From Dehalococcoidia bacterium (GTDB taxonomy: Bacteria > Chloroflexota > Dehalococcoidia > Lucifugimonadales > UBA3495): a stretch of 64,000 bases of DNA. This document shows, piece after piece, positions 32,593 through 50,870 of the stretch (position 1 is the first letter of the stretch; every line of letters starts with the position of its first letter). The stretch lies in assembly GCA_965203855.1 (NCBI GenBank), contig CBDBDN010000005.1:577804-641803 (forward strand), given 5' to 3'. The notes beneath the pieces are model-generated. The model did no database searches and was not told the origin of the DNA. It saw only the letters and a list, made by a program, of their open reading frames with translations. The position numbers were made by a program, and so were the translations under genes.

Positions 32593-32930
32593 TCTTTTGT
32601 CCTCCCAGTCTGTACGGAGCGCATTGGCAACGCAAATCCGTACCGCATAGTTCTCCCGACACATGGTGAGGTGGATGAGGACACTGCCAGCGGATGGACG
32701 CCGCACTCTGCCCGCCTTTACCGCAAAAGCGGGCAAGTCGGCGCCATCAGCAAAACAGCATTCCTCCGCCCACATTGTACGCCGTCCCCCGGTAATCAGC
32801 GCTGCATTGCCTAGCAAGGGCATTGGTATCACCTCGTTTTGCTGGCCGCCGGGCATTGTACGGGCGGCGTTGATGGATGGGTTGGTAGATAGATAGATTG
32901 CGGCCAAGGCTGGGTTGCCGCTGTGGCAGG

Positions 32931-33542
32931 CTAGTCGCCGTCGCCCCGCCCGGCCAGCGCAAAGGGTTCCCGCGCGAATATCCGCCGCACCATCGGCTCA
33001 AAGAACTCCAGTGGCAGCGACTGATACTCCGGGTCAAACGACGGCTGATCCCAGCGATGGCAGAAATCTACGGCGTCCTGATACCAGGGATGGTTCCGGT
33101 AGCGGTCGCGCGCATTGCGGTCATTGCCAAAGTGATGCGCGTAATAGTAGCTCTGAAACAGCCCATGCTGCCGGACAATCCAGTAAGTGCGCTTGGTTAC
33201 ATAGGGGCGTAGCACGGCGGCGGCCAGCTCGCTGTGGTTGTGCGGCGACAGCAAATCGCCAATGTCGTGCAGCAGGACGGCGACGATCATTTCATCGTCG
33301 GCATCGTCCCGGTAAGCCCGCGTCGCCGCTTGCAGCGAATGCTCCAGGCGGTCAACCCGATAGCCGGCCAGCGAACCGGACAAGCCGGCCAGCTGCGCCA
33401 GCACCCGGTCGGCGGTGCCGGCGGCGAATTCGGCCTCCAGGCGTTCCAGCAGCTCGTAGTCAGCGCGGGTGCCGGCGGCCATACTGGTAAAGGATACAGT
33501 GGCGGCGTCCCGCGCGCCGGGGATAGCGTTTTCGGTCATCAT
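32931..33542 (-). CDS. HD-domain protein (PhnZ/MIOX-like HD family)
   Basis: DRLEHSLQAATRA and VAVLLHDIGDLLSPHNHSELAAAVLRPYV motifs. Confidence 0.7.
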   Translation of the reverse strand: MMTENAIPGARDAATVSFTSMAAGTRADYELLERLEAEFAAGTADRVLAQLAGLSGSLAGYRVDRLEHSLQAATRAYRDDADDEMIVAVLLHDIGDLLSPHNHSELAAAVLRPYVTKRTYWIVRQHGLFQSYYYAHHFGNDRNARDRYRNHPWYQDAVDFCHRWDQPSFDPEYQSLPLEFFEPMVRRIFAREPFALAGRGDGD

Positions 33543-33695
33543 AAAACTTGCTCCGAGAAAAGGTTAGGGTAAAAGCCGCCGGCAAATTGACCGCCGGGGC
33601 GCTAGATTGTAGGATATTACCCCAATATCGTCATCAGTACCGCGTACTCCAGCGCTCCGGCGCTCCAATCCCCGAACCCCAACGTCGAATGCCTT

Positions 33696-34826
33696 ATGCC
33701 TGAAACTAACGGACAACACCCCGAACTGCGCCCCGAACCCCGTTTTGACTGGTTTGTCCCCATTGACGGGGACGGCAACCGGGCCGGCACACTGCGCCCG
33801 CAACGCCCGCCTACCTTTGACTACCTGCGCCAGGTGGCCGAAACCGCCGAGGACTGCGGTTTCTATTCCATGCTGATTCCGACCCGGTTCGCCAATGGGC
33901 TGTTCGCCGAGGATGCGCCGCTGGCAGAAACCTGGACTACGGCCACGGCATTGGCCGCCGTTACCTCCCGCATCCGCTTTCTGGTGGCCGTGCGTCCCGG
34001 TTTCATCGCTTTGGGCCTGTTTGCCCAGATGGCGGCGGCGCTGCACCAGATTTCCGGCGGACGGCTGGACCTCAACATCGTTCCCGGCGGCATTCAGAAC
34101 GATTTTGAGCGCGTCGGCGAAGTCAGCGACCACGCTACCCGCTACGAGCGCGCCGCGGAGTTTATCGCCGCCTGCCGCGCCCTCTGGCAGCAGCCGCAGC
34201 CGGTAGATTACGACGGCCAGTTTTACCGGTTGGCCGGCGCCTATTGTTCGCCGGCTCCCGGCGTTGATGCGCCCCGGTTTTACCTGGGCGGCGCATCCCC
34301 GCGCGCCGTGGCTCTCTCCGCGCGCCAGGCCGACGTGCATCTGGGCTGGATTGAGCCGCCGGACGACACCGCCCGCCGCATCGCCGACCTGCGCCGTCAA
34401 TATGATGACGCCAAACGCCCGCTAACTCTGGGCTTGCGTTCCCATCTGGTGATCCGAGACGACGAAGCAGCGGCCTGGCGCGCTGCCGGTGAGCTCATCG
34501 CTGATGCCGACCCGGCAGTCAAAGCGCAGCGGCAGGCGGCCATCGTCGGTACGCCAATGGTCGGGCAGCAGGCGCAGGCGCGGGCCGCCGCCGGGCATCG
34601 GCTGGGCGGCCCGCTCTGGAACGGCCTTTCGGAAGTGCGCGTCAATTGCGGCAGCGCGCTGGTTGGCACGCCCGAACAGGTTGCCGACGCCTTGCTGGAC
34701 TACTGGCGGCTCGGCATTGACGAGTTCATCCTCAGCGGCTTTCCGCATATTGAGGAATGCCGGCGCGCCGCCGGCCAGCTGCTGCCGCTGCTGCGGGAAC
34801 GCATCGCTGCGGAACGGGCGCAATGA
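33696..34826 (+). CDS. SsuD-like FMNH2-dependent alkanesulfonate monooxygenase family (luciferase-like) protein
   Basis: FDWFVPIDGDG N-terminus, IRFLVAVRPG, and the C-terminal ALVGTPEQVADALLDYWRLGIDEFILSGFPHIEE align by eye with E. coli SsuD as recalled from memory. Confidence 0.75.
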   Translation: MPETNGQHPELRPEPRFDWFVPIDGDGNRAGTLRPQRPPTFDYLRQVAETAEDCGFYSMLIPTRFANGLFAEDAPLAETWTTATALAAVTSRIRFLVAVRPGFIALGLFAQMAAALHQISGGRLDLNIVPGGIQNDFERVGEVSDHATRYERAAEFIAACRALWQQPQPVDYDGQFYRLAGAYCSPAPGVDAPRFYLGGASPRAVALSARQADVHLGWIEPPDDTARRIADLRRQYDDAKRPLTLGLRSHLVIRDDEAAAWRAAGELIADADPAVKAQRQAAIVGTPMVGQQAQARAAAGHRLGGPLWNGLSEVRVNCGSALVGTPEQVADALLDYWRLGIDEFILSGFPHIEECRRAAGQLLPLLRERIAAERAQ

Positions 34827-34863
34827 TTTTACGCTGTCGGCAAACGGACGGCGGGCGGCGCTG

Positions 34864-37800
34864 ATGGGCAGTTTCAGCCTGCTGCTTTGGCTGCTGCCCC
34901 GCCGGCTGCGTTCCGCCTGGGGTTTGTTGGCCGTTACCGCTTTTGGCGTCCTGGCCGCCGTAACTATTATGGCGCTGGGCGCAATGTATTCCCACGCCCT
35001 GGCCGAGGCCGGCCTGCGCCATTCCCTGGCGGTAGCCTCGCCCAATGTGATTAATGCGCGCATCATTGTCCGCAACCGGCCGTTGAGCCCGCAGGACTAT
35101 GCCGCGCTGCGTGCCGGCATTGAGGGCATTATTGACCGCAGCATCGGCTATCTGCAACGCGACCGGAACCGCTACGCCCGGATGCTGCCAACGCTGCCGT
35201 TCACCCGTGAGGATCTGCCCTACGGCATCCGGGATGTTCCGCTGGGACGCCCCTTTTTCGTTACCCGGTTTCAGGAACACGCGCAGCTGGCCTCCGGGCG
35301 GTGGCCGACGGACGCCGTAGGACAGGACGCCAACGGCCAGCCCTTGATCGAGGGCGTGCTGGGCGTCGATGCCGCCCGCAGCCTGGGCTGGACGGACGGG
35401 CAGCGCGCCTGGCTGGTGCTGTTTCCCGGTTCGGATGACCTGCCACGGCAGTATATCGCCGTGAACATCGTCGGCATTGCCGAGGCCGCCAATCCGCGCG
35501 CCGAGTACTGGATGGGCGCATCCGATTATTTCCACATCGGCGACTGGGAGGGCCGCCCGGTGGCGCCGATCTATGTAACCGAAAACGCCTATTTCAACGG
35601 CATTGGCGCCAACTACCCGTCTCTGGTTGGCGATTTCGGCTGGCTCAGTTACCTCAACCCGGATGCCATCACTTCCCGCACCGTAGCGGCGGCGCGCGAC
35701 AACCTGAAGGCTCTGGAAACCGACGTCAACGCCCAATTCCCCCGCTCTTATGTGCTGACCGGCCTGGAAAACAGCCGCGGCACCGGGCTGCTGGCAACTT
35801 ACCAGCGCGGCCTTACGCTGGCCCGCGCGCCCCTTTATCTGTTCATATCGCTGGTGGTAGTGGTCATCCTGTACTTTCTGGCATTGGCGGTTACGCTGCT
35901 GGCCGGCGCCCGCGCCGCCGAATCCTCGCTGCTGCGGAGCCGGGGGGCCAGCGCTTTACAAGTAGGCGGCCTCCTGGCGCTGGGCGAGGGCGCAATCGTG
36001 CTGGCCGCTACGCTGGTCGGCCCTCTGCTGGCCTGGGGCATCGGCAGCGCATTCCTGCTGGACACCATCAACCCGGTCAGCCGCCCCGGCGCCGGCGAAA
36101 CTCCGCTGGGCGTGGGCCTCTCCTGGCAGATGTATGCCATTGGCGCAGTGGGCGGCCTGCTCTGCCTGGCCGTGCTGACGGCGGCCGGCGGGTCGCTGGC
36201 GCGGCTGGGGATACTGGATTTCTTGCGCGCCCGTTCCCGTCCGCCGGCGGCGCCCTGGCTGCAACGCTATTACATTGACCTCCTGGCGGTAGCGGCGTTG
36301 GGCGTGCTGGTTTGGCAAATCCGGCAGCGGGGCGGCTTTGTAGAGGGAACATTGGCCGGCGGCGGCCCCGCGCTGGATCCGCTGCTGCTGCTGGCGCCGG
36401 CGGCCGCGCTGATTGCCCTTGCTTTTCTGCTGTTGCGCGCCCTGCCCTGGGCGATGGCGGCGGCGGCATGGGCCGCCCGGCATTCCGCGCCGGCCTGGAT
36501 TTCGCTGACGCTGCGGCAGATGGCCCGCCGCCCGCTGCCTTACGCCTCGCTGACGGTCGTCGTAACCCTGGCGGCGGCGTTGGGCGTGTTCGCCGGCTCT
36601 TTCCAGTCGACGCTGTCCCGCAGCGAAGCCGACCAGTCCCGGCACAGCATCGGCGGCGATATGACGCTGAACAATGCGCGTTTCAGCGGGCGCACGGCCG
36701 ACGCGCGGATAGCCGAGCTGAACGCCATTGACGGAGTAACGGCAGTGTCGGCGGTCATCCGCGAGCCGGTAGGGTTCCTGGACGGCCCAATGCAGCGCGG
36801 CACGGCGCTGGGCGTTGACCCGTTGACTTTTGCGTCGGCGTCGTGGTGGCGGGATTCCTTTGCCGGCGGCGAACCGTCCGATTTGGATACGCTGCTGGCG
36901 CCGCTGCGCCGCACTTTGAATTCGCAGTCGGCCGGCGTGGCGCTGCCGGCGGGCGCCAACCGCATTGCCGTACAGGCCCGCCGGGCGGACCGCAGTATCG
37001 GCGGCGCTGTTCCGCTGCCCAGCTACCGACTCTGGGCGCGCCTTGCCAACGCCAGCGGGGCGTACCGCAATCTGGAGCTGGGTACGCTGACGGCGGAGTT
37101 CGGCGCCGGCGAGCAATGGCGGCAGCTGGACGCCGAGCTGCCCGACCCGGCGGCGCAGTGGCGGCTGGTATCGGTGCATATCTCTGGTGAATCCTTTGCC
37201 CGCACGCCGCCCGGCGCGCTGTTGCTGGACGATATTACGGCGCACGGGCCGGGACTGCCGCCGGATGGCGCATTGGTAGAAGGGTTTGAGGAAATCGGGC
37301 CGTGGACGGCGCTGCCTCAAGCGGGCGGCGTCGCCGACCGCGCCGAGCGCACTGCCGACGCCGCCCGCTCCGGCGCCGCCGGGATGCGGATTACCTGGGA
37401 GGAGCCGCTGGGCCGGTCGCCGCGCGGCATTATCGTTCCGCCGGGGCCGCTGCCTCTGCCGGCTATCGCCGGGCCGGGTTTTGCCCCCGGCCAGCCGGTT
37501 CGCATCACCGTGGACGGCTACATTGTGCCGGCGCGCGTTACCGCCACCGTAAGCCATTTCCCGACGCTGGACGAAAGGCGTTCTTTTCTGGTGATGTCCG
37601 TCCACGAACTGCAAGCCTGGCTGGCGCAGGCCCCCGGCGCGCAGCCGATTACGCCCGACGAATGGTGGTTTGCCATTGCCGACGGCGCCGACCGCCAGCA
37701 GACGGCCAACGAAATTCGCGCCGTCGGTTACCGGCTGTCGTTCCTGCGCGACCGGGCGCACACCGTATCCGTAGCCACGCGCAACCCCTTGGCCGGCGGC

Positions 37801-38223
37801 GCCTGGAACGCCCTTACCGGCATCGGATTGGCCGCGCTGTCGCTGGCCGTGGGGTTGGCATTGTGCGCCCACGCCGCCGTTGCCGTGCGCGGCCAGCGCA
37901 TTGACCTGTCGGTAGGGGCCGCCTTGGGAACGCCGCGCTGGCAGCGTTACGCCGGGCTGGCCTTGGAACGCGGCATCATCGCCCTGTTGGGCAGCGTTGC
38001 CGGCGGACTGGCCGGCTGGGGACTGGCCTGGTGGACGCTGGGCGAATTGACCAGCGTCGGCGCCGGCGGTTCGGTTACGCCGCCCGTGATTTTCGTCGCC
38101 GAGGGCGCCTGGCTGGCGGCCACCTACGGCTGCCTGGGTCTGGCCGCCGCCGCCGCCGTTGCGCTGGCCGCCGCCGCCGCATCCCGCCTGTGTCCCGCCG
38201 AGACGCTGCGTGAAGCCGAGTAG
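34864..38223 (+). CDS. large double-FtsX-domain ABC transporter permease (MacB/FtsX type), permease 1
   Basis: Start moved to the ATG at 34864 (MGSFSLLLWLLPRRLRSAWGLLAVTAFGVLAAV). Two FtsX-type TM bundles (about residues 330-480 and the C-terminal 130 aa) are separated by large extracytoplasmic regions. Confidence 0.8.
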   Translation: MGSFSLLLWLLPRRLRSAWGLLAVTAFGVLAAVTIMALGAMYSHALAEAGLRHSLAVASPNVINARIIVRNRPLSPQDYAALRAGIEGIIDRSIGYLQRDRNRYARMLPTLPFTREDLPYGIRDVPLGRPFFVTRFQEHAQLASGRWPTDAVGQDANGQPLIEGVLGVDAARSLGWTDGQRAWLVLFPGSDDLPRQYIAVNIVGIAEAANPRAEYWMGASDYFHIGDWEGRPVAPIYVTENAYFNGIGANYPSLVGDFGWLSYLNPDAITSRTVAAARDNLKALETDVNAQFPRSYVLTGLENSRGTGLLATYQRGLTLARAPLYLFISLVVVVILYFLALAVTLLAGARAAESSLLRSRGASALQVGGLLALGEGAIVLAATLVGPLLAWGIGSAFLLDTINPVSRPGAGETPLGVGLSWQMYAIGAVGGLLCLAVLTAAGGSLARLGILDFLRARSRPPAAPWLQRYYIDLLAVAALGVLVWQIRQRGGFVEGTLAGGGPALDPLLLLAPAAALIALAFLLLRALPWAMAAAAWAARHSAPAWISLTLRQMARRPLPYASLTVVVTLAAALGVFAGSFQSTLSRSEADQSRHSIGGDMTLNNARFSGRTADARIAELNAIDGVTAVSAVIREPVGFLDGPMQRGTALGVDPLTFASASWWRDSFAGGEPSDLDTLLAPLRRTLNSQSAGVALPAGANRIAVQARRADRSIGGAVPLPSYRLWARLANASGAYRNLELGTLTAEFGAGEQWRQLDAELPDPAAQWRLVSVHISGESFARTPPGALLLDDITAHGPGLPPDGALVEGFEEIGPWTALPQAGGVADRAERTADAARSGAAGMRITWEEPLGRSPRGIIVPPGPLPLPAIAGPGFAPGQPVRITVDGYIVPARVTATVSHFPTLDERRSFLVMSVHELQAWLAQAPGAQPITPDEWWFAIADGADRQQTANEIRAVGYRLSFLRDRAHTVSVATRNPLAGGAWNALTGIGLAALSLAVGLALCAHAAVAVRGQRIDLSVGAALGTPRWQRYAGLALERGIIALLGSVAGGLAGWGLAWWTLGELTSVGAGGSVTPPVIFVAEGAWLAATYGCLGLAAAAAVALAAAAASRLCPAETLREAE

Positions 38224-38233
38224 ATAGACCGCT

Positions 38234-41200
38234 ATGACTGCCATCCTGCAACTGGGCTATGTGCTGGCGCGGCGGCGTCTGATGGCGTCGTTCCGCATTG
38301 AGCTAACGGTGCTGCTGGGGGTTACGCTGGCGGTGCTGCTGCTGGCCAGCGCGGCGGTTTTCAACGACCTGCTGGCAGAAACCGCACTGCGCCGCACCCT
38401 GTCCGAAGCAGCGCCGGGGGATGTCAACGCCTGGGTGCGCGTTTTCAACAGCCTGGACGACCCGCGCACGGCCACCGCCAACAGCGACCGCTATCTCACT
38501 TCCCGGCGGTTTGTCCGGGAACGCGTGCTGGATCCGCTGGATTACGCCTTTGCCGAAACCTCTTTCCAGATTGAAACCTCTACTTTCTACTTTGCCGGCC
38601 GCCCCAACTTGGACTTGCCCAACGACCGGCGTCCGCGGGGCCGGCTGCAATATCTTTCCGGCCTGCAAGCCAGCCCGGATGGTACAGAGGGCAAGGCGAC
38701 GCTGGCCGCCGGCCGCTGGCCCGCCCTGCCGGAAAACCCCGGCTACGATGACGCCTCCGGCGACACCGACGGCATCGTTATTGAGGTAGCGGTTGACGCC
38801 GCCGGACTAGAGTTCCTGGGCCTCCCGCTGGGCGAAACCTTTCAGATTTTCCCGGCCACCGGCGGCGCCGGGCAGCACTCTACCCCCGTGCGAGTGGTCG
38901 GCATCGTTGAGCCGGTGAACCCCGATGCTGAATACTGGTTCCGCCGCGACAAACTGCTAACTTACCACGATGAGAACTGGACGCTGGTGCCGCTCTTTAC
39001 AGCAGAATCCGCGCTGCGGCAGCAGGTAGGACGCCGCTACCCCGGCATCTACACCAGTTCAGCCTGGTTCCTGCAAACCGACCGGCTGGGCGTGCGCGCC
39101 GGCCGGGTGGACGACCTGCAAGACGATCTCCGCCGGATGCGCCGCGCCGTCAACAACGACCTGCCCAACGGCAGCGCATCCACCGGCCTGCCCCGCATCC
39201 TGGAGGATTACGAGGAACAGCTGCTGCTGGCCCGCATCCCGCTGTTTCTGATGGTTTTCCTGGTAGCCGGCATACTAGCGTACTATCTGACGATTACCGC
39301 CGGAATGGTCATCCGCGCCCGTTCTGCCGAAATCGCAATGCTGAAAAGCCGGGGCGCCACAACTCTGCAAATCGGCATCCTTACTCTAGTGGAGGGGCTG
39401 CTGCTGGCCGGCCCGGCATTGGCGGCCGGCACGCTGTTATCGCCGCTGCTGGCCCGCGCCCTGGGCGGGCTGGTATTCGACGCCGCTTGGACGGGCGCGC
39501 CGGTGTCGCTGTCCTGGACGGCTGTCGGGTTGGGCGCCGCCGGCGCGCTGCTGGCCGTCGTCGTGCTGTCGCTGGCCACGCTGGCGGCAGCCCGCAAAGG
39601 CATTGTTGAATTCCGCCAGGCCGGCGCGCGCCCGGCGCGGACGCCCTTTGTCCATCGCTACTATCTGGATCTGCTGGCGTTGGCGGTCATCGCCCTGCTG
39701 TGGTGGCAGATTTCCAGCCGCGGCACGGCGTTGACCCGCAGCCTGGGCAGCCGGGAGCTGGAAGTGGATTTCACGCTGCTGCTCGGCCCGGCATTGGGAT
39801 TGATTGCGCTGGGGCTGCTGGTGATGCGGCTGTTCCCGTTGGCCGCCGGCCTGTCTTCGCGGATTGTCGGCCCCGTTGGCCCCGGCTGGCTGGTGCAAGG
39901 GCTGCGCCGCATCGCGCGCGACCCCATCGCGCCCGGCAGCCTGGTTGCCTTGCTGATGCTGGCCACCGCGCTGGGCGTAGTCGGCAGCGCATTCTCCGCA
40001 ACGCTTACCCGCAGCCAGGACGACCGCATCCGCTACGCAGTAGGCGCCGACGTCCGCATAATGCACGACGGCGCCCGCCGCAACCGGGCCAGCGCTGGCG
40101 CATCGCAGCAAATCCCCCAATCCGCCGAAGTGATGCGAACCGAGGGCAGCCTGCTCACCGAAGCATTCGGCTCGCAGCGCATATCGGTGCTGGCGGTAGA
40201 ATCGGATCGTTTCGCTTCCGCAGCGTGGTGGCGTCCCGATTTCAGCGACGGCAGTACGCTGCCGGAGCTGATGACCCGGATTACGCCCGCATCCGGCGCA
40301 GCATCGCCCGGGTTGGCCCTGCCGCCGGGCACTGAGTCGCTGGCGTTGTGGGCGCGGACGGGCGGCTTTCAAGAGCGGCTCATCAGCGTCGCCGCGCGTA
40401 TCCGGGACGGCTCCGGGCGTCATTATGATGTCCCCATTGGCGATGTCAGCGGCTACGGATGGCAGCAGATTGAGGAAAGCATCGCCCTGCGGCCGGGACG
40501 TCCCGGACGGGAAAGCGAAGCCGCCGTCCGCCCCCGGCTGGACGAACCCCCGCATACGCTGATTAACTTACAGGTTATTGGACGCACCGCCAGCGACCGC
40601 CCCGGCGTCCTGTACCTGAACGGTTTGGAAGCCCGTACCGATGCGGATGCCAATGCCGACGCAGTTCCGGTAGCCCCCCTGGAATCGGCGGCCGGCTGGA
40701 ATGCGATTGAGGACTATGTGCGTCCCGGCCTCTATTCGCTGGAAACCAGTTCCGGCGTAGCCCGGCCGGGCGGCGGCGGCTCGGCGGTATTCAGCTGGTC
40801 GCCGGGCGGCATTGGCGCGCCGGGCTTGTATCCCGGCGCGGTTGCGCCGCCGCTGCCCGCCATCGTCAGCCCCGGCATCCTGGAAGCCACCGGCGCATCC
40901 ATTGGCGACCGCATCAGCCTTGGAATGTCCACTTTTGCGCTGCCCATCGAAATTGTCGGCGTCGCCGCATTTTTCCCGACCGTCGACCCCAGAGAGCAGC
41001 CTTTTGTGATTGCCGATCTGGACGGCTTTGTGGATTACGCCAACCGGCACAGCCGGCGCGTTTTCGGCGGCGCCGGCGAATTGTGGGTCAACGCCGGCAT
41101 CGCCCCCGGCGACCGCGCCGCCGCCCAGGACGCGGCGCAGCGCGCGGCGGCGGCAGTGTCCGGCCTCGGACTGAACATCAGCCGCACTATAGTTGCCGAA

Positions 41201-41671
41201 AGCGAGGCCGAACTGCGCGCCCGCCAGCCCCTGGCCAACGCCGGCTGGGGCGGCTTGCTGGTGATTATGTTCCTGGCGCTGGTGCTGGCCAGCGCATCCG
41301 GCATCGCCCTGTTCTGCTGGCTGGACACGCGGGAACGCCAGACCGAGTTCGCCCTGCTGCGGACGCTGGGCAGCAGCCGAGGCCAGCTCAACGCCGTCGT
41401 CTGGTTCAACCTGGCCGTAGTGGTAATCGCCGGCGTCGCCGTCGGCACCTGGGCCGGCGCGCAAATCGGAGCCGCGTTGCTGCCGGTGCTGGAAGTATCC
41501 GAGGGCGGCGTCCGGGCCACGCCGCCGCTGACGCTGGAAACCGACTGGCGGATGCTGGCCCTGGCCTACGCCGTGCTGGGCGGCGTCAGCATCGTAACGG
41601 TAATCTGGCTGGCAGTTGTAACCGGCCGGCTGGAAGTGCAGCGGGTGCTGCGCGCCGGCGAAGGCGGCTAG
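38234..41671 (+). CDS. large double-FtsX-domain ABC transporter permease, permease 2
   Basis: 1145 aa with the same architecture as permease 1 (IAMLKSRGATTLQIGILTLVEGLLLAG; C-terminal EFALLRTLGSSRGQLNAVVWFNLAVV). Confidence 0.8.
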   Translation: MTAILQLGYVLARRRLMASFRIELTVLLGVTLAVLLLASAAVFNDLLAETALRRTLSEAAPGDVNAWVRVFNSLDDPRTATANSDRYLTSRRFVRERVLDPLDYAFAETSFQIETSTFYFAGRPNLDLPNDRRPRGRLQYLSGLQASPDGTEGKATLAAGRWPALPENPGYDDASGDTDGIVIEVAVDAAGLEFLGLPLGETFQIFPATGGAGQHSTPVRVVGIVEPVNPDAEYWFRRDKLLTYHDENWTLVPLFTAESALRQQVGRRYPGIYTSSAWFLQTDRLGVRAGRVDDLQDDLRRMRRAVNNDLPNGSASTGLPRILEDYEEQLLLARIPLFLMVFLVAGILAYYLTITAGMVIRARSAEIAMLKSRGATTLQIGILTLVEGLLLAGPALAAGTLLSPLLARALGGLVFDAAWTGAPVSLSWTAVGLGAAGALLAVVVLSLATLAAARKGIVEFRQAGARPARTPFVHRYYLDLLALAVIALLWWQISSRGTALTRSLGSRELEVDFTLLLGPALGLIALGLLVMRLFPLAAGLSSRIVGPVGPGWLVQGLRRIARDPIAPGSLVALLMLATALGVVGSAFSATLTRSQDDRIRYAVGADVRIMHDGARRNRASAGASQQIPQSAEVMRTEGSLLTEAFGSQRISVLAVESDRFASAAWWRPDFSDGSTLPELMTRITPASGAASPGLALPPGTESLALWARTGGFQERLISVAARIRDGSGRHYDVPIGDVSGYGWQQIEESIALRPGRPGRESEAAVRPRLDEPPHTLINLQVIGRTASDRPGVLYLNGLEARTDADANADAVPVAPLESAAGWNAIEDYVRPGLYSLETSSGVARPGGGGSAVFSWSPGGIGAPGLYPGAVAPPLPAIVSPGILEATGASIGDRISLGMSTFALPIEIVGVAAFFPTVDPREQPFVIADLDGFVDYANRHSRRVFGGAGELWVNAGIAPGDRAAAQDAAQRAAAAVSGLGLNISRTIVAESEAELRARQPLANAGWGGLLVIMFLALVLASASGIALFCWLDTRERQTEFALLRTLGSSRGQLNAVVWFNLAVVVIAGVAVGTWAGAQIGAALLPVLEVSEGGVRATPPLTLETDWRMLALAYAVLGGVSIVTVIWLAVVTGRLEVQRVLRAGEGG

Positions 41672-41838
41672 ACGGCGCAAAAACGCAATACTATAATGTC
41701 CGGCGGTGCGGAGTTCCGATTCAGTCCGGTTCAGCTAGACAGAATATTTCCAGAGGGATTATGCAAATGCCCAATGTTATTGCCAGCCGGCGGCCCATCC
41801 GCGGCTGCTTCCGTATCGCTTCCACAGCCCTGAAAGTC

Positions 41839-41874
41839 GGGGGGGGGGGGGGGGGGGGGGGGGGGAGAGAGAGA
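41839..41874. repeat. G27 homopolymer followed by (GA)5
   Basis: Counted directly: 27 G (41839-41865), then GAGAGAGAGA overlapping the last G. It occupies the position of GTGGGGGTGGGGAGATG in the paralogous copy. Confidence 0.95.
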
Positions 41875-41897
41875 AACGCTTCCCCCTGCTGGCGGCG

Positions 41898-43697
41898 TTG
41901 GCAGTATTAGTCTGCGCTTCATCCCTGTTCTCCGCCGGGTCGGGGCCGGCATTAGCGCAAGACCGTTGGCTGGATTTGCCGGCGCCGACCGGCGTGGCGG
42001 CAGTTAACGGCGCAAATCCGGGCGAAGTGATAATTTCCTGGAACCCGGTTGCCGGCGCCGCTTACTACCGCATCGCCTGGATTGCCGCCGCCGATGCGGA
42101 CGCGATAGCCGAAAGCGGCGGCGACTGGCTGGCAGCAATCGCTTATACCAACATATCCGCCGTTACTGATACCGGTACTGATACGGATTCCGATATACGG
42201 CATACCTTGGCCCGCCTCAACCCGGGCGTGCGCTATACTTTTCTGGTGGGCAGCTTGCGCGTCAAATCGGGAACGCCGTCCTGGTCGTCGCCGGCCGAAC
42301 TTAACCTGACTATGGGCGCTCTAATCCCAGACAAGTTTCGCGAAATTACCGTGCCGGTAGGCTTAACGGTCAATGAACCGGGAGCATTTGGCGGCTATAC
42401 TTTGGTCACTGCCCTTTATAAAGGAATCAGTTTTTTGATTGACGCAGGCGGACAGTTGATACGCCGCTGGGATCATACGATTATCCATACGCGGCTGCTT
42501 GAGAATGGCAATCTGCTGGGAACAAGCAGAGAAGGCGTGATTTATGAAATTGACCCGGCAGGCAATCTGCTGTGGGAATACCAGCATCCTAAGAGGCAAC
42601 ATCACGACTTTCTGAAACTGCCTAATGGCAATGTGCTGCTGATAGTGCGGGAGCTCAAAACGCAAGCGGAAGCCGTCGCTGCCGGTGCCAACCCCGCATT
42701 CGCGAGTCCTGACGGGCTGTATAACGAAAGGATTATTGAAATTCGTCCCATCTATCCGGATCACGCCGAAGTCGTCTGGGAATGGTCGCTATGGGACCAT
42801 CTGGTGCAGGATTACGATCCCTCCAAAGTCAACTTCGGGATCGTCGCCGAACATCCGGAACTAGTTGACATCAACTATAACCTGCGTCAAATGGCGCGTA
42901 CGGGACGAACTAGCCCCACCGACTGGACGCACGCCAACGGCCTGGACTACAACCCGGCACTGGACCAGATTCTGTTTTCGCCGCGCAATATGAGCGAAAT
43001 CTGGATTATTGACCACAGTACTACTACCGAGGAAGCCGCCGGACATACCGGGGGCAACGGCGGCAGAGGCGGCGATTTGCTGTATCGCTGGGGCAATCCG
43101 CAAGCGTATCGGGCCGGCGCATTCGCCGACCAGCAGCTGTTCTGGCAGCATAATCCCTACTGGATACCGGAAGGATTGCCTGGCGCCGGCAACATCCTGA
43201 TTTTCAACAACGGCGACGGGTATGAGGGGCGTTATCTGGATCATTCGTCGGTGGTGGAGATAACGCCGCCGGTATCCGGCTACGGCTACGCCAGAAATGA
43301 GGCCGGCGGCATCCGCTACGGCCCGTCCCTGCCGGCGTGGACTTATACGGCGGAACATCCCCCCGACTTTTTATCGCGGCGGTTTTCCAACGCACAGCGG
43401 CTGCCCAACGGCAACACAATGATCGTCAGCGGGCAGGACGGCGTGATTTTTGAGGTAACGCCGGATGGCGCCATGGTGTGGCGGTATGTGAATCCGGTAG
43501 TCGGCTGGGGGGCGATTTATCAAGGCGACCCGATCCGAGTAGCACTAGCCCCGCAAGGGCGCGCTGGCGGCGCGGGCCCGTTCTGGCGGAATTTCATCTA
43601 CCGCGCTTATCGCTACGCGCCGAACTATCCGGGACTGCAACATTATGACTTGACGCCCAAAGGCACCGTGGAACGCTATCGCAATGACGGGCAATAG
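41898..43697 (+). CDS. secreted FN3 + arylsulfotransferase (ASST)-like beta-propeller protein, copy 1 (start codon uncertain or lost)
   Basis: 599-aa ORF from a TTG. The signal-peptide remnant KRFPLLAALAVLVCASS..ALA-QD continues upstream with no ATG. FN3-like N-terminal domain. Propeller motifs ENGNLL, HHDFLKLPNGNVL, WEWSLWDH, THANGLDYNPALDQILFSPRNMSEIWIIDHS, LPNGNTMI. Confidence 0.6.
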   Translation: MAVLVCASSLFSAGSGPALAQDRWLDLPAPTGVAAVNGANPGEVIISWNPVAGAAYYRIAWIAAADADAIAESGGDWLAAIAYTNISAVTDTGTDTDSDIRHTLARLNPGVRYTFLVGSLRVKSGTPSWSSPAELNLTMGALIPDKFREITVPVGLTVNEPGAFGGYTLVTALYKGISFLIDAGGQLIRRWDHTIIHTRLLENGNLLGTSREGVIYEIDPAGNLLWEYQHPKRQHHDFLKLPNGNVLLIVRELKTQAEAVAAGANPAFASPDGLYNERIIEIRPIYPDHAEVVWEWSLWDHLVQDYDPSKVNFGIVAEHPELVDINYNLRQMARTGRTSPTDWTHANGLDYNPALDQILFSPRNMSEIWIIDHSTTTEEAAGHTGGNGGRGGDLLYRWGNPQAYRAGAFADQQLFWQHNPYWIPEGLPGAGNILIFNNGDGYEGRYLDHSSVVEITPPVSGYGYARNEAGGIRYGPSLPAWTYTAEHPPDFLSRRFSNAQRLPNGNTMIVSGQDGVIFEVTPDGAMVWRYVNPVVGWGAIYQGDPIRVALAPQGRAGGAGPFWRNFIYRAYRYAPNYPGLQHYDLTPKGTVERYRNDGQ

Positions 43698-43736
43698 GCC
43701 GGCGATTTCCGCTTTTGGCTGGCCGCCGGCTTTATG

Positions 43737-43816
43737 GGGCGGATTCCGGCCTGCGCCCAAATGACGGTTAGGGGGCCGGAATAACGGTATTGGTAGGTAG
43801 CCGGAATGATGGCGTT
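43737..43816. repeat. family-A repeats (reverse orientation) inside duplication unit 1
   Basis: GGATTCCGGCCTGCGCCCAAATGACGG, CCGGAATAACGG, CCGGAATGATGG. Confidence 0.7.
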
Positions 43817-44153
43817 GCAAAAAGTATGACGGCGCAGAGCGGCGGAACGATAGCGTGATGCGGTATAATAGCCCCCGCTTTGCGTTGCCCGCGCCCGACT
43901 GCGGCAATCCCCGGCGCAGCGCAAGCCCGTCCGCAATGGCATCAGCAAACTACAACGACGCCAACAACGCCCGTTCCGGCAGCGACGACTACCGTCGGCA
44001 GTTTATGCCCCCGGAACGCCGCAGCCGCGCCGGCCGGCCCGACGCCCCACGACTAGAGATTATGCAAATGCCCGATGTTACCGCTAATCGGCGGCCCGGC
44101 CGCAGCCGTTTCCCGATTAGATCCACTGCCCTGAAAGTCGTGGGGGTGGGGAG

Positions 44154-46094
44154 ATGAAACGCTTCCTCTTGCCGGCGGCATTAGCGGTAGCGGCGTTAGC
44201 GGTATTAGTTTGCGCCCTGCTCCTGCTCGCCGCCGGGCCAAAGCCGGCAGCAGTGCTGGACCGCTGGCTGGATTTGCCGGCGCCGACCGGCATTGCGGTC
44301 GTCAACGGCGAAAATCCGGGCGAAGTGATTATCTCTTGGAACCCGGTTGACGGCGCCGCTTTCTACCGCATCGCCTGGATTGCCGCCGCCGATGCGGATG
44401 CGATAACCGAAAACGGCGGCGACTGGCTGGATGCCATCGCCTATACCAACATATCCGCTGCTGCCGATACGGATACTGCTGCCGATACGGATGCCGATGC
44501 CGATACCGATACGGATGCCGATACCGATACCGATACGAATGCCGATACCGATACGGATGTCTATGCCGATACGGATGCCAATACCGATGACGATACTGGC
44601 ACACAGCATACCTTGACCCGCCTCAACCCGGGCGCCCGCTATACTTTTCTGGTCGGCAGCCTGCGCGTCAAAAACGGAACGCCGTACTGGTCGGCGCCGG
44701 CCGAACTTAACCTGACTACGGGCGTGCTGCCCTATGACCCGTTCCGCCGCAGCACCGTGCCGGTGGGCCTGACTGCCAATGAACCGGGCGCATTTGGCGG
44801 ATATACTCTGTTTGCGGCGCGGAACGAGACACCCTATCTAGTTGACGCGGACGGCCATCTGGTACACCACTGGGATGCTGCGGAGATCATTCATGCTCGT
44901 CTGCTTGAAAACGGCAATCTGTTGGGATCTGATTACGATGGGACGATCTATGAAATTGACCCGGCGGGCAATTTGCTGTGGGAATACCGGTATCCTATCT
45001 GGCAGCATCACGACTTTCTGAAACTGCCTAATGGCAATGTGCTGATGATAGTGCGGGAGCTCAAAACGCAGGCGGAAGCCGTCGCCGCCGGCGCCAACCC
45101 CGCATTCGTGAGTCCTGAGGGGCTGAACAACGAAAGGATTATTGAAGTTCGTCCCATCTACCCGGACCGCGCCGAAGTCGTCTGGGAATGGTCGCTATGG
45201 GACCATCTGGTGCAGGATTACGATCCCTCCAAAGCTAACTACGGAAACGTATCCGAACACCCGGAACTGGTTGACATTAACTATACCCTGCGGCAGCTGT
45301 CTCTGACGCAGCGAGCAACCAAAGATGACCTGCTGCACGCCAACGGATTGGATTACCACCCGGAGCTGGACCAGATTATGTTTTCGGCGCGCAATATGAG
45401 CGAAATCTGGATCATTGACCACAGTACTACTATCGCGGAAGCCGCCGGGCATAGCGGCGGCAACGGCGGCAAGGGCGGCGATTTGCTGTATCGCTGGGGC
45501 AATCCCCAAACTTATCGCGCCGGCTCTTTCGCCGACCAGCAGCTGTTCTGGCAGCATAATCCTTACTGGATACCGGAAGGGTGGCCCGGCGCCGGCAACG
45601 TTCTGATTTTCAACAATGGCGACGAGTACGAAGGGCGTTATCTGGACTACTCGTCGGTGATAGAAATCACACTGCCGGCATCCGGCTACGGCTATGCAAT
45701 GGACGCGGGCGACGGCGTCCGCTACGGCCCAACCCAACCGGTCTGGACTTATACGGCGGAAAATCCCCCCGACTTTTTATCGCGGCGGCTTTCCAGCGCG
45801 CAACGCTTGCCCAACGGCAACACATTGGTCATCGACGGCTTGCAAGGCGTGATTTTTGAGGTTACGCCGGACGGCGCTACGGTGTGGCGGTATGTGAACC
45901 CGGTAGTAGGGAAAGGGCCGATTTACCAGGGCGGTACTATTGCAGTGGCGCAAACCGCGCGGGAGCAGCCGGGGCCGTTCTGGCGCAATGCCCTCTTTCG
46001 CGCCTACCGCTACGCGCCGGACTATCCGGGCCTGCAACACTACGATTTGACGCCCAAAGGCACCGTGGAACTCTATCCCGATGACGGGCAATAG
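44154..46094 (+). CDS. secreted FN3 + ASST-like beta-propeller protein, copy 2
   Basis: ATG with GGGGAG upstream. Signal peptide MKRFLLPAALAVAALAVLVCALLLLAAG. About 85 percent identical by eye to copy 1. Contains a D/T/A acidic repeat insertion. Confidence 0.65.
   Translation: MKRFLLPAALAVAALAVLVCALLLLAAGPKPAAVLDRWLDLPAPTGIAVVNGENPGEVIISWNPVDGAAFYRIAWIAAADADAITENGGDWLDAIAYTNISAAADTDTAADTDADADTDTDADTDTDTNADTDTDVYADTDANTDDDTGTQHTLTRLNPGARYTFLVGSLRVKNGTPYWSAPAELNLTTGVLPYDPFRRSTVPVGLTANEPGAFGGYTLFAARNETPYLVDADGHLVHHWDAAEIIHARLLENGNLLGSDYDGTIYEIDPAGNLLWEYRYPIWQHHDFLKLPNGNVLMIVRELKTQAEAVAAGANPAFVSPEGLNNERIIEVRPIYPDRAEVVWEWSLWDHLVQDYDPSKANYGNVSEHPELVDINYTLRQLSLTQRATKDDLLHANGLDYHPELDQIMFSARNMSEIWIIDHSTTIAEAAGHSGGNGGKGGDLLYRWGNPQTYRAGSFADQQLFWQHNPYWIPEGWPGAGNVLIFNNGDEYEGRYLDYSSVIEITLPASGYGYAMDAGDGVRYGPTQPVWTYTAENPPDFLSRRLSSAQRLPNGNTLVIDGLQGVIFEVTPDGATVWRYVNPVVGKGPIYQGGTIAVAQTAREQPGPFWRNALFRAYRYAPDYPGLQHYDLTPKGTVELYPDDGQ
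44464..44597 (+). repeat. in-frame hexanucleotide-type (GAT ACN / GAT GCC) microsatellite encoding (DT/DA)n
   Basis: Encodes ADTDTAADTDADADTDTDADTDTDTNADTDTDVYADTDANTDDDT, where copy 1 has only a short TDTGTDTDSD. Confidence 0.9.
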
Positions 46095-46137
46095 GCCGAC
46101 GGTTGCCCCTTTTTGCCTGGCCGTTTGCTTCCTTTAT

Positions 46138-46246
46138 GGGGCGGATTCCGGCTTGCGCCGGAATGACGGTATTGGTGGATAGCCGGAATGACGGTTAGGA
46201 TGCCGGAATGACGGTATTGGTGAATAGCCGAAACGATGGCGTTGCA
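46138..46246. repeat. family-A repeats (reverse orientation; 20-25-bp units) inside duplication unit 2
   Basis: GGATTCCGGCTTGCGCCGGAATGACGG, then three CCGGAATGACGGT-type units. Confidence 0.8.
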
Positions 46247-46434
46247 AAAAGTATGGCGGCGCAGCGGAGAGGCGAGATGATGGCGTGATGCGGTATAATA
46301 ATCCCCGCTTTGCGTTGCCCGCGCCCGACTGCGGCAATCTCCGGCGCAGCGCAAGCCCGTCCGCAATGGCATCAGCAAACTACAACGACGCCAACAACGC
46401 CCGTTCCCGCAGTGACGACTACCGCCGGCAGTTT

Positions 46435-47568
46435 ATGCCGCCGGAACGCCGCGGCAGCGCCCCCGCAGCGCCGGCCGACCCGCCCGATACTTCAATATCA
46501 GCGGCGGCGACGCCCGCGCCGTCGCAAATTGAACCGGAATCGGAACCCGCCCTTGCCGAACCTATCCCGCCGTCAGCATCGGAGAACGGCCGGCCGCCGC
46601 CCGACCTGGCGTTGGAAACGTCCCTGGCCGAATCCAACCTTGACGATGCGGCAGCCCCGGCCTATGTCGAGGCCAGCGACCTGTTCAAGATTTACAAGCC
46701 GGCCGACCTGGAAGTGGTGGCATTGCGCGGCGTTGATTTACAGGTTGCCGCCGGCGAACTGGTGGGCATCGTCGGCGCCAGCGGTTCGGGCAAGACGACG
46801 CTGCTGAACATCCTGGCCGGACTGGAACGCCCCTCCGCCGGCGGCATCCGCGTCGGCGCGCGCGACCTGCTGGACATCAGCGACCGCGACCTGGTGGAGT
46901 ACCGCCGGCGCGAAGTGGGTTTCGTCTGGCAGGCTACCGGGCGCAACCTGGTGCCGTATCTGAATGTGCGGGACAACATTGAGCTGCCCCAGGCCATCGC
47001 CGGCGTCGGCAAGCGGCAACGCCGGGAACGGGCCGCCGAACTGCTGGACGCCCTGCAAATGTCCGACAAGGCCCGCCGCTATCCCGCTGAGCTCTCCGGC
47101 GGCGAGCAGCAGCGCGTCGCCATCGCAGTGGCCTTGGCCAATCGCCCGCCGCTGCTGCTCGCCGACGAACCTACCGGAGAACTGGACACCAACATGGCCG
47201 AGGATGTGCTGCAAATGCTGCGGCGCATCAACCGCCGTTTCGGAGTTACCGTCATCATCGTTACGCATTACGCCGGCATCGCCCGTTGGGTAGATCGCGT
47301 AGTACGCATTCGCGACGGCCGCATCGGCTCCGAATCCTATCTGACGGCATCTTACCGGGGCGATGACGGGCAAGAGCAGGAGTATCTGGTAGTGGATCGG
47401 GCGGGCCGGCTGCAACTGCCCCGGGAGTATGTGGAACAGGTGTCAATGGACGGACTGGCCAGCGCCGGCATTGCCGCCGACGGCAGCGCCATCACCATCC
47501 GGCCCGCCGTTGCCCCGCAGCGCAGCCGCAGCCACCGCGAAACCGCCGACCGGGCGCCGGACTCCTAA
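46435..47568 (+). CDS. ABC transporter ATP-binding protein 1 (MacB/LolD-like) with a disordered Pro/Ala/Glu-rich N-terminal extension
   Basis: Walker [10 protein letters not shown], signature LSGGEQQRV, Walker B LLLADEPT. Start is uncertain: the ATG at 46435 is preferred because codons upstream of it lie in the duplicated leader. Confidence 0.8.
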
Positions 47569-47614
47569 GGCGCAGGGCATTCCCCAACCCGGACTTAACT
47601 AACTGCCGGACTTG

Positions 47615-48370
47615 ATGGACTACCGGACTTGTATGGACGATATGACACAAGCGCAAGCGCACGCCATTACTGATACCACCGCCAATGCCGCAGAGCCGGC
47701 CATGGCCGCCGCCGCGGTAGTCCGCGAATTCGGGCAGGGCGACAGCGCCGTGCGCGCCGTGAATGGCGTAACCCTCACCGTCGGGCGCGGCGAATTTGTC
47801 GCGCTGGTAGGCCGTTCCGGCTCCGGCAAAACCACGCTGCTCAACCTGCTTGCCGGCCTGGACCGCCCCACGCACGGCAAGATCTGGTTTGAGGGGCGGG
47901 ATCTGGCGGCGTTTTCCGAGCGCAATCTGGTAGAACTGCGGCGGAATAAAATCGGTTTCGTATTCCAGTCCTTTGGGCTGATACCGCTGCTGTCGGCCTT
48001 TGAGAATGTGGAGCTGCCGCTGCACATCGGCGGCGTGTCCTGGCGGGAACGCCGCCGCCGGGCCAACGACGCCTTGGCGATGGTGGGGCTAACCGGCCGC
48101 GCCGGACATCGCCCCTACGAACTTTCCGGCGGCGAGCAGCAGCGGGTTGCCATCGCCCGGTCCCTGGTCGCCGGCCCTGCGGCGCTGTTCGCCGACGAAC
48201 CCACCGGCGAGCTGGACAGCGTTACCGCCCTCAGCATCGGCGGCATAATGCGCGAAATCGTCGCCGAGCGCGGCGTTACCATCGTTGCCGCCACCCACGA
48301 CCTGATGCTCGCCGCTATGGCCGACCGTCGCCTCCAAATGGCCGATGGCGAAGTCATAGCGGAGGATTAA
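47615..48370 (+). CDS. ABC transporter ATP-binding protein 2 (MacB/LolD-like)
   Basis: Walker A GRSGSGKTT, signature LSGGEQQRV, Walker B ALFADEPT. Confidence 0.85.
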   Translation: MDYRTCMDDMTQAQAHAITDTTANAAEPAMAAAAVVREFGQGDSAVRAVNGVTLTVGRGEFVALVGRSGSGKTTLLNLLAGLDRPTHGKIWFEGRDLAAFSERNLVELRRNKIGFVFQSFGLIPLLSAFENVELPLHIGGVSWRERRRRANDALAMVGLTGRAGHRPYELSGGEQQRVAIARSLVAGPAALFADEPTGELDSVTALSIGGIMREIVAERGVTIVAATHDLMLAAMADRRLQMADGEVIAED

Positions 48371-48397
48371 CGCCATTCCCGGCCCTTACCCCGACTC

Positions 48398-48423
48398 TCT
48401 CCCATAATGATAGGGGGATTTTT
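48398..48423 (+). terminator. candidate intrinsic terminator after the ABC cluster
   Basis: CTCTCCC-ATAATGATA-GGGGGA (6 bp including one G-U pair) followed by TTTTT. Confidence 0.45.
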
Positions 48424-48536
48424 AGCGCTATTGCAATTGCGGCAAGTTGCCCGTACCCGGCCTGGTATGGTATGGTATATTTCGCAGTACGACAATTCAG
48501 CAATTCAACGCAATGTTTTGACATCAGGAGATTTGA

Positions 48537-48722
48537 ATGGCTTATGTAACGCCTCGCGAGGGCGAAACCCCGGAAAGCCTGGTGAACCGATTTCGCGCTT
48601 CAGTACAGCACGCCGGCGTCCTGCGCGAGCTGAAAGACCGGCGCTTTTTCCGCTCCAAGGCGCAGAAAGAACGGCTGGCCGCCCAGCGCGCTGCCCGCCG
48701 CCGCCGCCGCCAGCGCCGTTAG
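48537..48722 (+). CDS. rpsU: 30S ribosomal protein S21
   Basis: 61 aa. ESLVNRFRASVQHAGVLRELKDRRFFRSKAQKER with a basic tail. GGAG RBS. Confidence 0.9.
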   Translation: MAYVTPREGETPESLVNRFRASVQHAGVLRELKDRRFFRSKAQKERLAAQRAARRRRRQRR

Positions 48723-48764
48723 CCTACACGGGCCGCGTATTTTTTGGAGCGATTTGTCCATAAG

Positions 48765-48843
48765 TTCGTCATTCCGGCGAAAGCCGGAATCTAGGCGCGG
48801 TTTCTGGGCTTCGGGTTTCTCTGGAATGACGCCGGAATAATCG
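48765..48843. repeat. inverted pair of family-A units
   Basis: TTCGTCATTCCGGCGAAAGCCGGAATCT at 48765-48795 and CTGGAATGACGCCGGAATAATCG at 48821-48843. Confidence 0.75.
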
Positions 48844-49007
48844 CATCACGGCGTCGGCGCAGCGATAAATTGACCCGCTGTCGGGGCAGTGCTAAACTGC
48901 CTCTGCAATGTTTTGCGGCGCCGCGCAGCTACCCGTCAATGTGTCCGGCTAATGCGCCCGGCGCATCTTGCCGCATCCATCCATTCAGCAAGCCAGGAGG
49001 GACGGTT

Positions 49008-49358: not shown

Positions 49359-49407
49359 TCCCCACCGCCCGCGCTAGTCAGCGTCAACGCCCGCGCTAAC
49401 CCGACCA

Positions 49408-50865: not shown

Positions 50866-50870
50866 TTCAC

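Follow-up and report, generated by a model that had tools for sequence, protein, structure and literature searches.

The window analysed here, a 64,000-nucleotide (nt) stretch of contig CBDBDN010000005.1 from a Dehalococcoidia bacterium, carries at 33696-48370 on its plus strand an ATP-binding cassette (ABC) transporter with two very large permeases, whose genes enclose two genes for propeller proteins of the arylsulfate sulfotransferase (ASST) family. The SAR202 lineage is a globally abundant, barely cultivated marine group whose envelope biology is largely obscure. What we expect to last from this analysis is an apparently clade-wide SAR202/Dehalococcoidia ABC architecture of two 10-helix permeases of about 1,100 amino acids (aa) and two ATPases, not the pairing of propeller with transporter, which is probably the outcome of insertion into the operon.

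The Locus

The gene map is based on the open reading frame (ORF) listing. A flavin monooxygenase of the luciferase-like monooxygenase (LLM) class (33696-34826) comes first, followed after a gap of 37 nt by permease 1 (1119 aa; 34864-38223) and after a further 10 nt by permease 2 (1145 aa; 38234-41671). Then come propeller copy 1 (41898-43697) and propeller copy 2 (44154-46094), and the row is completed by ATPase 1 (46366-47568, in an ORF that opens at 46285) and ATPase 2 (47612-48370). Order, gaps and the common strand are those that the first-pass annotation of this DNA had given. The propeller genes have 58-59% G+C against 66-70% in the permease genes.

The Permeases and Their ATPases

Both permeases contain two stretches that match the Pfam FtsX model, at 26.2 bits in permease 1 and 50.5 bits in permease 2 (cutoff 25.5). 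By hydropathy each has 10 transmembrane (TM) helices, with TM5, which lies under the threshold of the script, counted by eye. The order is the same in the two proteins: TM1, an extracytoplasmic domain (ECD) of about 290 aa, TM2-4, two linker helices, TM7, a second ECD of about 400 aa, and TM8-10. Secondary structure from AlphaFold2 (AF2) agrees with the placing of the ECDs between TM1 and TM2 and between TM7 and TM8. The early description of each permease as two FtsX bundles with very large extracytoplasmic regions is thus borne out. The two proteins are 28% identical over their full length, the start of permease 1 is backed by homologues of 1118-1125 aa, and the Pfam MacB_PCD model has no match in either at E ≤ 0.01.

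The AF2 model of permease 2 has E. coli YbbP (9GE6/9GE7) as its best Foldseek match, over the full length and with E = 1e-11; LolC/E, MacB, BceB, YtrF and HrtB are also matched. The TM-score to YbbP is low (0.30-0.39), the model having a mean predicted local distance difference test score (pLDDT) of 60.9, weak in the membrane part and good in the second ECD (ECD2). This enlarged and beta-rich domain gives a beta-sandwich signal and a weak match to a FlaA-like profile. YbbAP, the closest solved relative, was reportedly characterised in 2025.

The Pfam model ABC_tran matches both ATPases (E = 1e-33 for ATPase 1 and 6e-35 for ATPase 2), and the Walker A, signature and Walker B-Glu motifs can be read in each. 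The top NCBIfam models for both are LolD, MacB, YbbA and FtsE, at 181-219 bits and all under the equivalog cutoffs, and we class both as MacB/LolD-type nucleotide-binding domains (NBDs). The two are 48% identical. ATPase 1 most likely starts at the ATG at 46366 (400 aa), because the motif DYxRQFMPPxRR just downstream is conserved in the related locus L008 (loci of relatives carry L numbers), whereas the sequence upstream of this Met is not. The Pro/Ala/Glu-rich N-terminal extension of about 100 aa that had been noticed in ATPase 1 is present even when counted from 46366. For ATPase 2, homologues of 243-245 aa suggest a start at the ATG at 47633.

Taken together, the FtsX matches, the ATPase profiles and the top structural match support the assignment of the transporter to the type VII (MacB/FtsX-type) ABC systems, as first proposed, and specifically to a YbbP-like form with 10 TM helices. 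The YbbAP complex consists of two YbbA, one YbbP and one TesA (PMC12646458). A 10-TM permease of this kind makes up a whole pseudo-dimeric TM unit and has two coupling helices, so two NBDs per permease are expected; the two ATPases of the window may form one heterodimer that serves each permease, or a homodimer for each.

Conservation of the ABC Module

Permease 2 has 347 homologous clusters, and all the named ones belong to Dehalococcoidia or Chloroflexota. A scan of genomes with a 13-sequence profile gave 80 species representatives, with which the window proteins were compared by tblastn. Apart from one uncultured bacterium, these are titled Dehalococcoidia, Chloroflexi/Chloroflexota or SAR202 cluster bacterium; several isolate names (RHO, IRC, SB06xx) may be those of sponge-metagenome bins. 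The representatives fall into clades of 45-53% identity (n = 37) and 73-78% identity (n = 43); in the window's own subclade, permease 2 is 87-100% identical.

Permease 1 is upstream of permease 2 in 77 of the 80 loci and directly adjacent to it in 66. The two ATPase genes are always paired. They follow directly downstream in 34 of the 37 loci of the 45-53% clade, and lie within 10 kb in 7 of the 43 loci of the 73-78% clade. The stable core is the permease pair with the ATPase pair, linked or elsewhere in the genome; the LLM gene and the CtaG and YtkA genes described below are lineage-specific neighbours. The literature searched yielded no description of the gene combination, of the ABC architecture, or of ASST-like genes in SAR202, in agreement with the first-pass annotation, which had not recognised the combination as a described system. 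The ABC module is apparently a clade-wide and undescribed type VII architecture in SAR202/Dehalococcoidia.

Two further features of these loci may be recorded. In the 73-78% clade the four-gene operon is split at 35 of 43 loci (among L004-L045 and L077), the ATPases not being within 10 kb, and in 28 of those 35 a conserved convergent ORF of about 300 aa, by eye CitE/HpcH-like, stands after permease 2. Genes for YtkA-like and Caa3_CtaG proteins lie directly upstream of the LLM gene or permease 1, on the same strand, in 21 of 43 loci of the 73-78% clade and 11 of 37 of the 45-53% clade (for example at L093 4605-6312, and in 32 further loci); this linkage is absent from the window's subclade. Such proteins are cytochrome oxidase assembly or copper-delivery factors, and they may offer a lead to the function of the ABC system.

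The Flavin Monooxygenase

The first gene of the row matches the Pfam model Bac_luciferase (E = 2e-62). Its best NCBIfam matches are the SsuD models TIGR03565 (267.8 bits, cutoff 518.2) and NF001939 (269.9 bits, cutoff 510). It thus shares with SsuD the LLM TIM-barrel superfamily, and the early label of SsuD-like stands as far as the family and the nearest models go. It does not stand further, the score being about half of the equivalog cutoff: judged by these profiles, the protein is related to SsuD but is not an SsuD equivalog. Unlike ssuD, the gene has no ssuE or ssuABC nearby (by eye, the ORF list of the window's flanks holds none of these and no other sulfur genes), and it belongs to a large LLM expansion in SAR202, where the LLM paralogues of a genome can exceed 100 (PMC6946804).

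The LLM gene is directly upstream of permease 1 in 31 of 41 loci of the 73-78% clade, all without the propeller, and in 2 of 32 loci of the 45-53% clade. The link between LLM gene and permease is older than the propeller insertion and independent of it. This bears on a hint given at the outset, that the pairing of SsuD-like and ASST-like genes has an organosulfur or sulfo-conjugate function. In a fuller form of the idea, the LLM would work as a sulfonate monooxygenase and serve the metabolism of sulfonates or sulfate esters jointly with the ASST-like enzymes and the ABC transporter. The alkanesulfonate monooxygenase models that lead the LLM matches are in its favour, as is the movement of sulfuryl groups by the ASST family (PMC13426309), but we consider it very improbable. 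The sub-cutoff score, the lack of sulfur genes in the flanks and the age of the permease link all speak against it; LLM paralogues are very numerous in SAR202, the co-occurrence of LLM and propeller is limited to the window's subclade, and type VII ABC systems are established not to be importers (PMC12646458).

The Propellers as ASST-family Proteins

The Pfam model PF05935 (Arylsulfotrans) matches copy 1 at 78.3 bits and copy 2 at 80.0 bits, over a cutoff of 24.2, and hhalign pairs the propeller with E. coli ASST at a probability of 96.5%. The AF2 model of copy 2 (mean pLDDT 76.9) has an N-terminal beta-sandwich and a 6-bladed propeller. Its best Foldseek matches are Streptomyces Cpz4 (9KF6/9KF4, E = 4e-13) and E. 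coli ASST (3ELQ/3ETT, E = 5e-11). The structure-based identity to the characterised members is about 14-15%. It should be noted that profile and fold methods were needed to see this likeness, because phmmer against PDB sequences found designer-propeller repeats only and no ASST.

Active-site residues were mapped from those listed in PMC13426309, with hhalign and MAFFT alignments to the ASST of E. coli CFT073 (L087:38857-40653). His252, His356, Asn358 and Arg374 correspond to H286, H395, N397 and R413 of copy 2, all conserved and the first and third invariant. Thr501 falls on the variable L546, which adjoins a nearly invariant S547, so that four of the five sulfuryl-coordinating residues are kept. 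The catalytic His436 aligns in both programs with Asn469 of copy 2, one residue from the invariant His468; a loop shift of one residue would match the motif WQHNPYW found here to YTQHTAW of E. coli.

The ratio of nonsynonymous to synonymous substitution rates (dN/dS) is about 0.3 for both copies, and for copy 1 it is 0.28-0.31 against its paralogues, with no internal stops. Such values indicate that the propellers are under purifying selection. PF05935, the fold and most active-site residues agree with the first identification of the proteins as ASST-like. They are probably active enzymes of the family, new to it and distant from its characterised members. The signal peptide and FN3-like domain ascribed to each of them need qualification: copy 2 has a Sec-type signal peptide and an FN3-like beta-sandwich, but the signal peptide of copy 1 is truncated as read and the Pfam fn3 match is sub-threshold. 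A Tat signal in the leader (SRRPIRG) was considered and rejected, its RR not being conserved in L001 or L002.

Compared with E. coli ASST and Cpz4, the propellers of the window share PF05935, the beta-sandwich with a 6-bladed propeller, and secretion. They differ in that His436 is off by one and Thr501 is not conserved, in having no adjacent DsbL/DsbI genes, and in carrying putatively hypermutable poly-G and Asp-Thr tracts.

Probable Insertion of the Propeller Cassette

At ≥ 45% identity, the tblastn comparison found a propeller in none of the 80 representative loci. In L007, L015, L033 and L038 a more distant ASST-like gene (30% identity) is encoded on the other strand, some 4 kb upstream, and was judged coincidental because the family has at least 7,992 matches. 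Within the window's subclade the propeller is found at the same junction in four of five lineages (the window, L088, L089 and L002). L089 has the order LLM, permease 1, permease 2, propeller, ATPase 1, ATPase 2, with a single propeller copy; L002 runs from LLM through both permeases and the propeller to YbeY; L088 stays collinear with the window past copy 1, and its contig breaks off within a second copy. The distance from the permease 2 stop to the upstream ATG of the propeller is 88-90 nt in the window, L088 and L089, a constancy that suggests one insertion event.

Over 32929-41675 and 46288-51005, L085 and L086 match the window at about 96% identity. The stretch between these blocks spans 4.6 kb in the window; in L085 and L086 its place is taken by 1.3 kb of unrelated DNA (50.6% G+C) with a lipoprotein-like gene that is broken by a stop codon and a frameshift. 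At this level of identity L085 is conspecific with the window, and it has no propeller at the junction.

Propeller paralogues (P numbers) also occur elsewhere. P0241, 88% identical in aa sequence to copy 1, lies in L084 between a Ni-superoxide dismutase gene and genes for an Asp-protease, DsbH and AspRS; P0008 (73%) lies in L001 beside ALGX-like and peptidase S9 genes; and P0036 (55%) lies in L091 between DUF499 and metG. No FtsX genes are near the paralogues at these three loci. As L084 and L088 come from one sample, and L001 and L089 likewise, copies in and out of the operon coexist in one community. At the nucleotide level copy 1 is 90% identical to the L084 paralogue, 82% to copy 2 and 80% to its positional counterpart in L088, in flanks that are about 96% identical. 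This pattern suggests gene conversion or cassette exchange among paralogues.

The junctions of the operon accept other genes as well. Those between permease 1 and permease 2, or between permease 2 and ATPase 1, hold in various relatives an N6/N4 methylase-Mrr fusion and a second N6/N4 methylase, HNH and EcoRII-C nucleases with a C5 methylase, DDE transposases, a PMT-like membrane glycosyltransferase and a leucine-rich repeat (LRR) lipoprotein. Cargo was seen at the first junction in L004, L006, L009, L010, L013, L016, L019 and L044, and at the second in L006, L009, L043, L055 and L085, where it is the decayed lipoprotein-like gene of low G+C. The junctions are an insertion hot spot inside a conserved operon, and in such a place embedding in the operon is weak evidence of function.

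The first-pass annotation had suggested that the propellers are clients or partners of the ABC engine. The more explicit form of this idea takes its lead from YbbAP-TesA: the propeller would be a recruited enzyme that docks on the giant ECDs, with the ABC machine presenting a phenolic or lipidic substrate for sulfation or desulfation. Same-strand embedding with gaps of 88-136 nt, retained in L002, L088, L089 and the window, is what one would expect of a partner, as are purifying selection on both copies and a permease whose closest structural relative, YbbP, binds the enzyme TesA. This precedent makes the idea a reasonable one, but we hold recruitment to be unlikely. The propeller is missing from all 80 other species with the ABC module and from a conspecific strain whose ABC genes are intact, and paralogues at 73-88% identity sit at loci without FtsX genes. 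Strains that agree at about 96% in the flanks have operon alleles about 20% apart at the nucleotide level, the opposite of what is expected of a co-adapted interface, and the junction slot takes unrelated cargo. Because the synteny of propeller homologues with FtsX permeases is confined to one narrow subclade, and a conspecific strain is without the gene, the partner claim largely falls; what speaks for it is adjacency.

A combined form would make the junction of permease 2 and ATPase 1 a slot for extracytoplasmic partners: in the one subclade, the heteromeric pair of YbbP-like permeases would have captured ASST-like propellers as exchangeable, TesA-like enzyme modules, phase-variable through the poly-G tract and diversified by gene conversion among paralogues. 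Lipoprotein-like, LRR-lipoprotein and PMT-like genes do occur at the junction in other lineages. We give this form a rather small chance.

Duplication and Variable 5′ Ends

The two propeller copies, which are 77% identical in aa sequence, belong to a diverged tandem duplication of 41754-44031 and 44055-46461, with an identity of 78-92% by segment. The duplicated unit carries about 60 codons of the ATPase 1 ORF at 43855-44049 (ATPase 1 residues 1-63 by tblastn, 88% aa identity), and this fragment aligns to the start of ATPase 1 in L085. The portion at 43858-44031, which comprises the promoter region and about 32 codons and marks the junction of the duplication, is 92% identical to 46288-46461. 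Since the unit includes the first part of ATPase 1, the ancestral order was permease 2, propeller, ATPase 1. Assembly collapse or chimerism as the source of the duplication was rejected on the divergence of the copies, the shared arrangement in L088, and the single copy at the same junction in L089. The duplication has also created a chimeric ORF of 100 codons (43855-44157), in which the ATPase 1 fragment is fused to a propeller leader; its TGA overlaps the ATG of copy 2 (ATGA), and translational coupling could occur there.

The body of copy 1 is intact; as read, its 5′ end is compromised. After a poly-G tract of 27 nt (41839-41865) comes GAGAGAGA, at a place where G(n)-ATG stands in copy 2 and in most homologues. 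Homologue comparison identifies a conserved upstream start and leader of 26 codons at 41761-41865. The ATG at 41761 is out of frame with the body of copy 1, whose sole in-frame start is a TTG at 41898 that leaves a truncated signal peptide. In homologues, MQMP..RRP..STALKV-Gly(n)-(M)KRF and the signal peptide read in one frame through G tracts of 12-24 nt, and the upstream ATG is preceded by a Shine-Dalgarno (SD)-like GGAG/GAGG motif. Neither copy in the window is in frame with that ATG; copy 2 carries one of its own. We do not call copy 1 a pseudogene, as its body has no stops and a dN/dS of 0.28-0.31, and homopolymer length is unreliable in assemblies.

The tract sits after CTGAAA[GC]TC. At the same 5′ site, propeller homologues have G tracts of 27, 24, 13, 6+6, 5+6 and 5+4 nt (window 41839-41865; L084 10079-10102; L002 about 13676-13688). 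It is a candidate site of slipped-strand phase variation, or else of homopolymer sequencing error. An artefact of assembly at the poly-G as the sole cause of the copy 1 start was set aside because independent assemblies have the tract at this site too, with different lengths; the figure of exactly 27 is not to be trusted. A second repeat tract, an Asp-Thr/Ala microsatellite with periods of 6, 12, 18 and 42 nt (44458-44596), enlarges, in copy 2 alone, a loop of the FN3-like domain, and homologues have shorter acidic versions of variable length. In the AF2 model this loop (residues 105-147) has a pLDDT below 50.

Homopolymer-tract contingency loci are known, for example in Neisseria, Haemophilus and Campylobacter. 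The propeller genes are like these in that a long, frame-setting G tract stands at the start of a secreted-protein gene and differs in length among close homologues. They are unlike them in that the variation seen is between homologues, and in that the host is an uncultured, high-GC member of the Chloroflexota, symbiotic or free-living. One could thus view the propellers as secreted or surface proteins that vary in phase and sequence by poly-G slippage, gene conversion and the microsatellite. Their main role would then be in interaction with a host or the environment and not in metabolism, and their site in the operon would be incidental. A tract of 5+4 to 27 nt that shifts the frame relative to a conserved, SD-preceded ATG fits this view, as do the microsatellite, the mosaic identity of 80-92% along the two copies, and the fact that copy 1 is nearer to the L084 paralogue than to copy 2. 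Yet nothing in an assembly is less reliable than the length of a homopolymer, the supposed leader could be a 5′ untranslated region taken in by gene callers, and the active-site residues are kept, so an enzymatic role would be retained. We rate contingency as the main role as improbable; it is compatible with our preferred reading of insertion and not exclusive of it. The ASST-like genes may be described as a large and fast-evolving family of secreted sulfotransferase-like proteins with possible phase variation.

How the Module and Its Cargo May Work

In sum, we prefer the view that a conserved YbbP-like type VII ABC module has a junction hot spot in which accessory secreted ASST-like genes have settled. 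This we hold to be probable, and the gene combination is best explained as an insertion. The two paralogous 10-TM permeases and two MacB/LolD-type ATPases would form the type VII module of the SAR202 lineage. By analogy with YbbAP, MacB and LolCDE, it would work by mechanotransmission: binding and hydrolysis of ATP in the cytoplasm would move the ECDs, and these would act on a substrate in the membrane or at its outer face, with no import of solute. In a narrow subclade's ancestor, an ASST-family propeller would have entered between permease 2 and ATPase 1, apparently together with a promoter-like site of its own. A later tandem duplication in the window's lineage would have taken along the first part of ATPase 1 and been followed by divergence and exchange with paralogues. 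The propellers are most likely secreted enzymes resembling the aryl-sulfate sulfotransferases that do not depend on 3′-phosphoadenosine-5′-phosphosulfate, and are independent of the ABC machine; once exported, they would act on phenolic or sulfated compounds outside the cell.

Several points weigh against this preferred view. YbbAP-TesA is itself a precedent for a YbbP-type machine with an extracytoplasmic enzyme encoded next to it. The propeller has been kept at the same junction in all but one of the five subclade lineages, and its co-directional setting, short gaps and purifying selection suit recruitment as well as a tolerated passenger. Moreover, confidence in the AF2 permease model (mean pLDDT 60.9) is low for the membrane part, and the substrate and stoichiometry we propose for the ABC system are drawn from analogy.

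How far the analogy extends can be judged from the solved E. coli complex (9GE6-9GE8; PMC12646458), which pulls hydrophobic compounds from the membrane by mechanotransmission and passes them to the periplasmic hydrolase TesA. Common to the two systems are two FtsX bundles with two linker helices in a 10-TM permease, ECDs between TM1-TM2 and TM7-TM8, MacB-type ATPases, and an extracytoplasmic enzyme encoded beside the transporter. The window differs in having two paralogous permeases and two paralogous ATPases in place of one each. Its permeases, at about 1,120-1,145 aa, are longer than YbbP (804 aa), with a much larger and beta-rich ECD2, and a disordered stretch of some 100 aa extends its ATPase 1. 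Finally, the neighbouring enzyme is an ASST-like propeller that varies by strain, with a linkage confined to a narrow subclade, whereas arrangements like tesA-ybbAP are reported from other Gram-negatives (PMC12646458). LolCDE, MacB and BceAB, the secondary Foldseek and profile matches, share with the module the FtsX fold, the NBD family and an ECD after TM1, but the scores are under their equivalog cutoffs, and partner genes like LolA/B, MacA/TolC or BceRS are found neither in the ORF list nor in the annotated loci of relatives.

Should a substrate be found, the mechanotransmission family would gain both a new phylum and a new stoichiometry. Separately, the ASST-like genes are of relevance to the turnover of sulfated and phenolic metabolites.

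Other Features of the Region

The best match to a promoter consensus in the region is TAGACG-17-TATAAT at 41669-41697, where the permease 2 stop meets the propeller cassette. Ten of the 12 positions agree, and it is a promoter-like site by this consensus match alone. An Rfam scan of 33000-49500 (E ≤ 1) gave nothing meaningful, the one match being a sub-threshold miRNA, so the propeller leader is not a known RNA family. A terminator had been proposed after ATPase 2. The hairpin there (48398-48423), 6 bp with a 9-nt loop and then U5, before rpsU (start 48538), folds no better than shuffled sequences (z = 0.48) and was not reported by a terminator scan, and we have dropped it as a terminator.

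The flanks were read by eye. They hold housekeeping genes: an HD-domain protein, an APH-like kinase, ilvBNC and leuA upstream, and rpsU, a Zn-ribbon protein, dtd, a NUDIX protein and metG downstream. The same picture emerges when the syntenic loci L085 and L088 are annotated with Pfam. Elsewhere in the window, a 523-aa ORF on the minus strand (21294-22865) has, as read from the sequence, an N6/N4 DNA-methylase motif (DPPFNSN) and a C-terminal HNH-like motif, and resembles the methylases inserted between permease 1 and permease 2 in relatives.

A repetitive extragenic palindromic (REP)-like repeat, GCCGGAATGACGGT, is matched 51 times in the window, where 0.85 matches would be expected, often in arrays with a period of about 20 nt. 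The repeat is genome-wide and is also present in the 3′ spacers of the propeller cassette, where an array at 46157-46230 matches one at 43755-43813. Other arrays lie at 11463-11620, 15673-15918, 30559-30746, 55140-55373 and elsewhere, and they yield spurious repetitive ORFs, such as that at 54958-55479.

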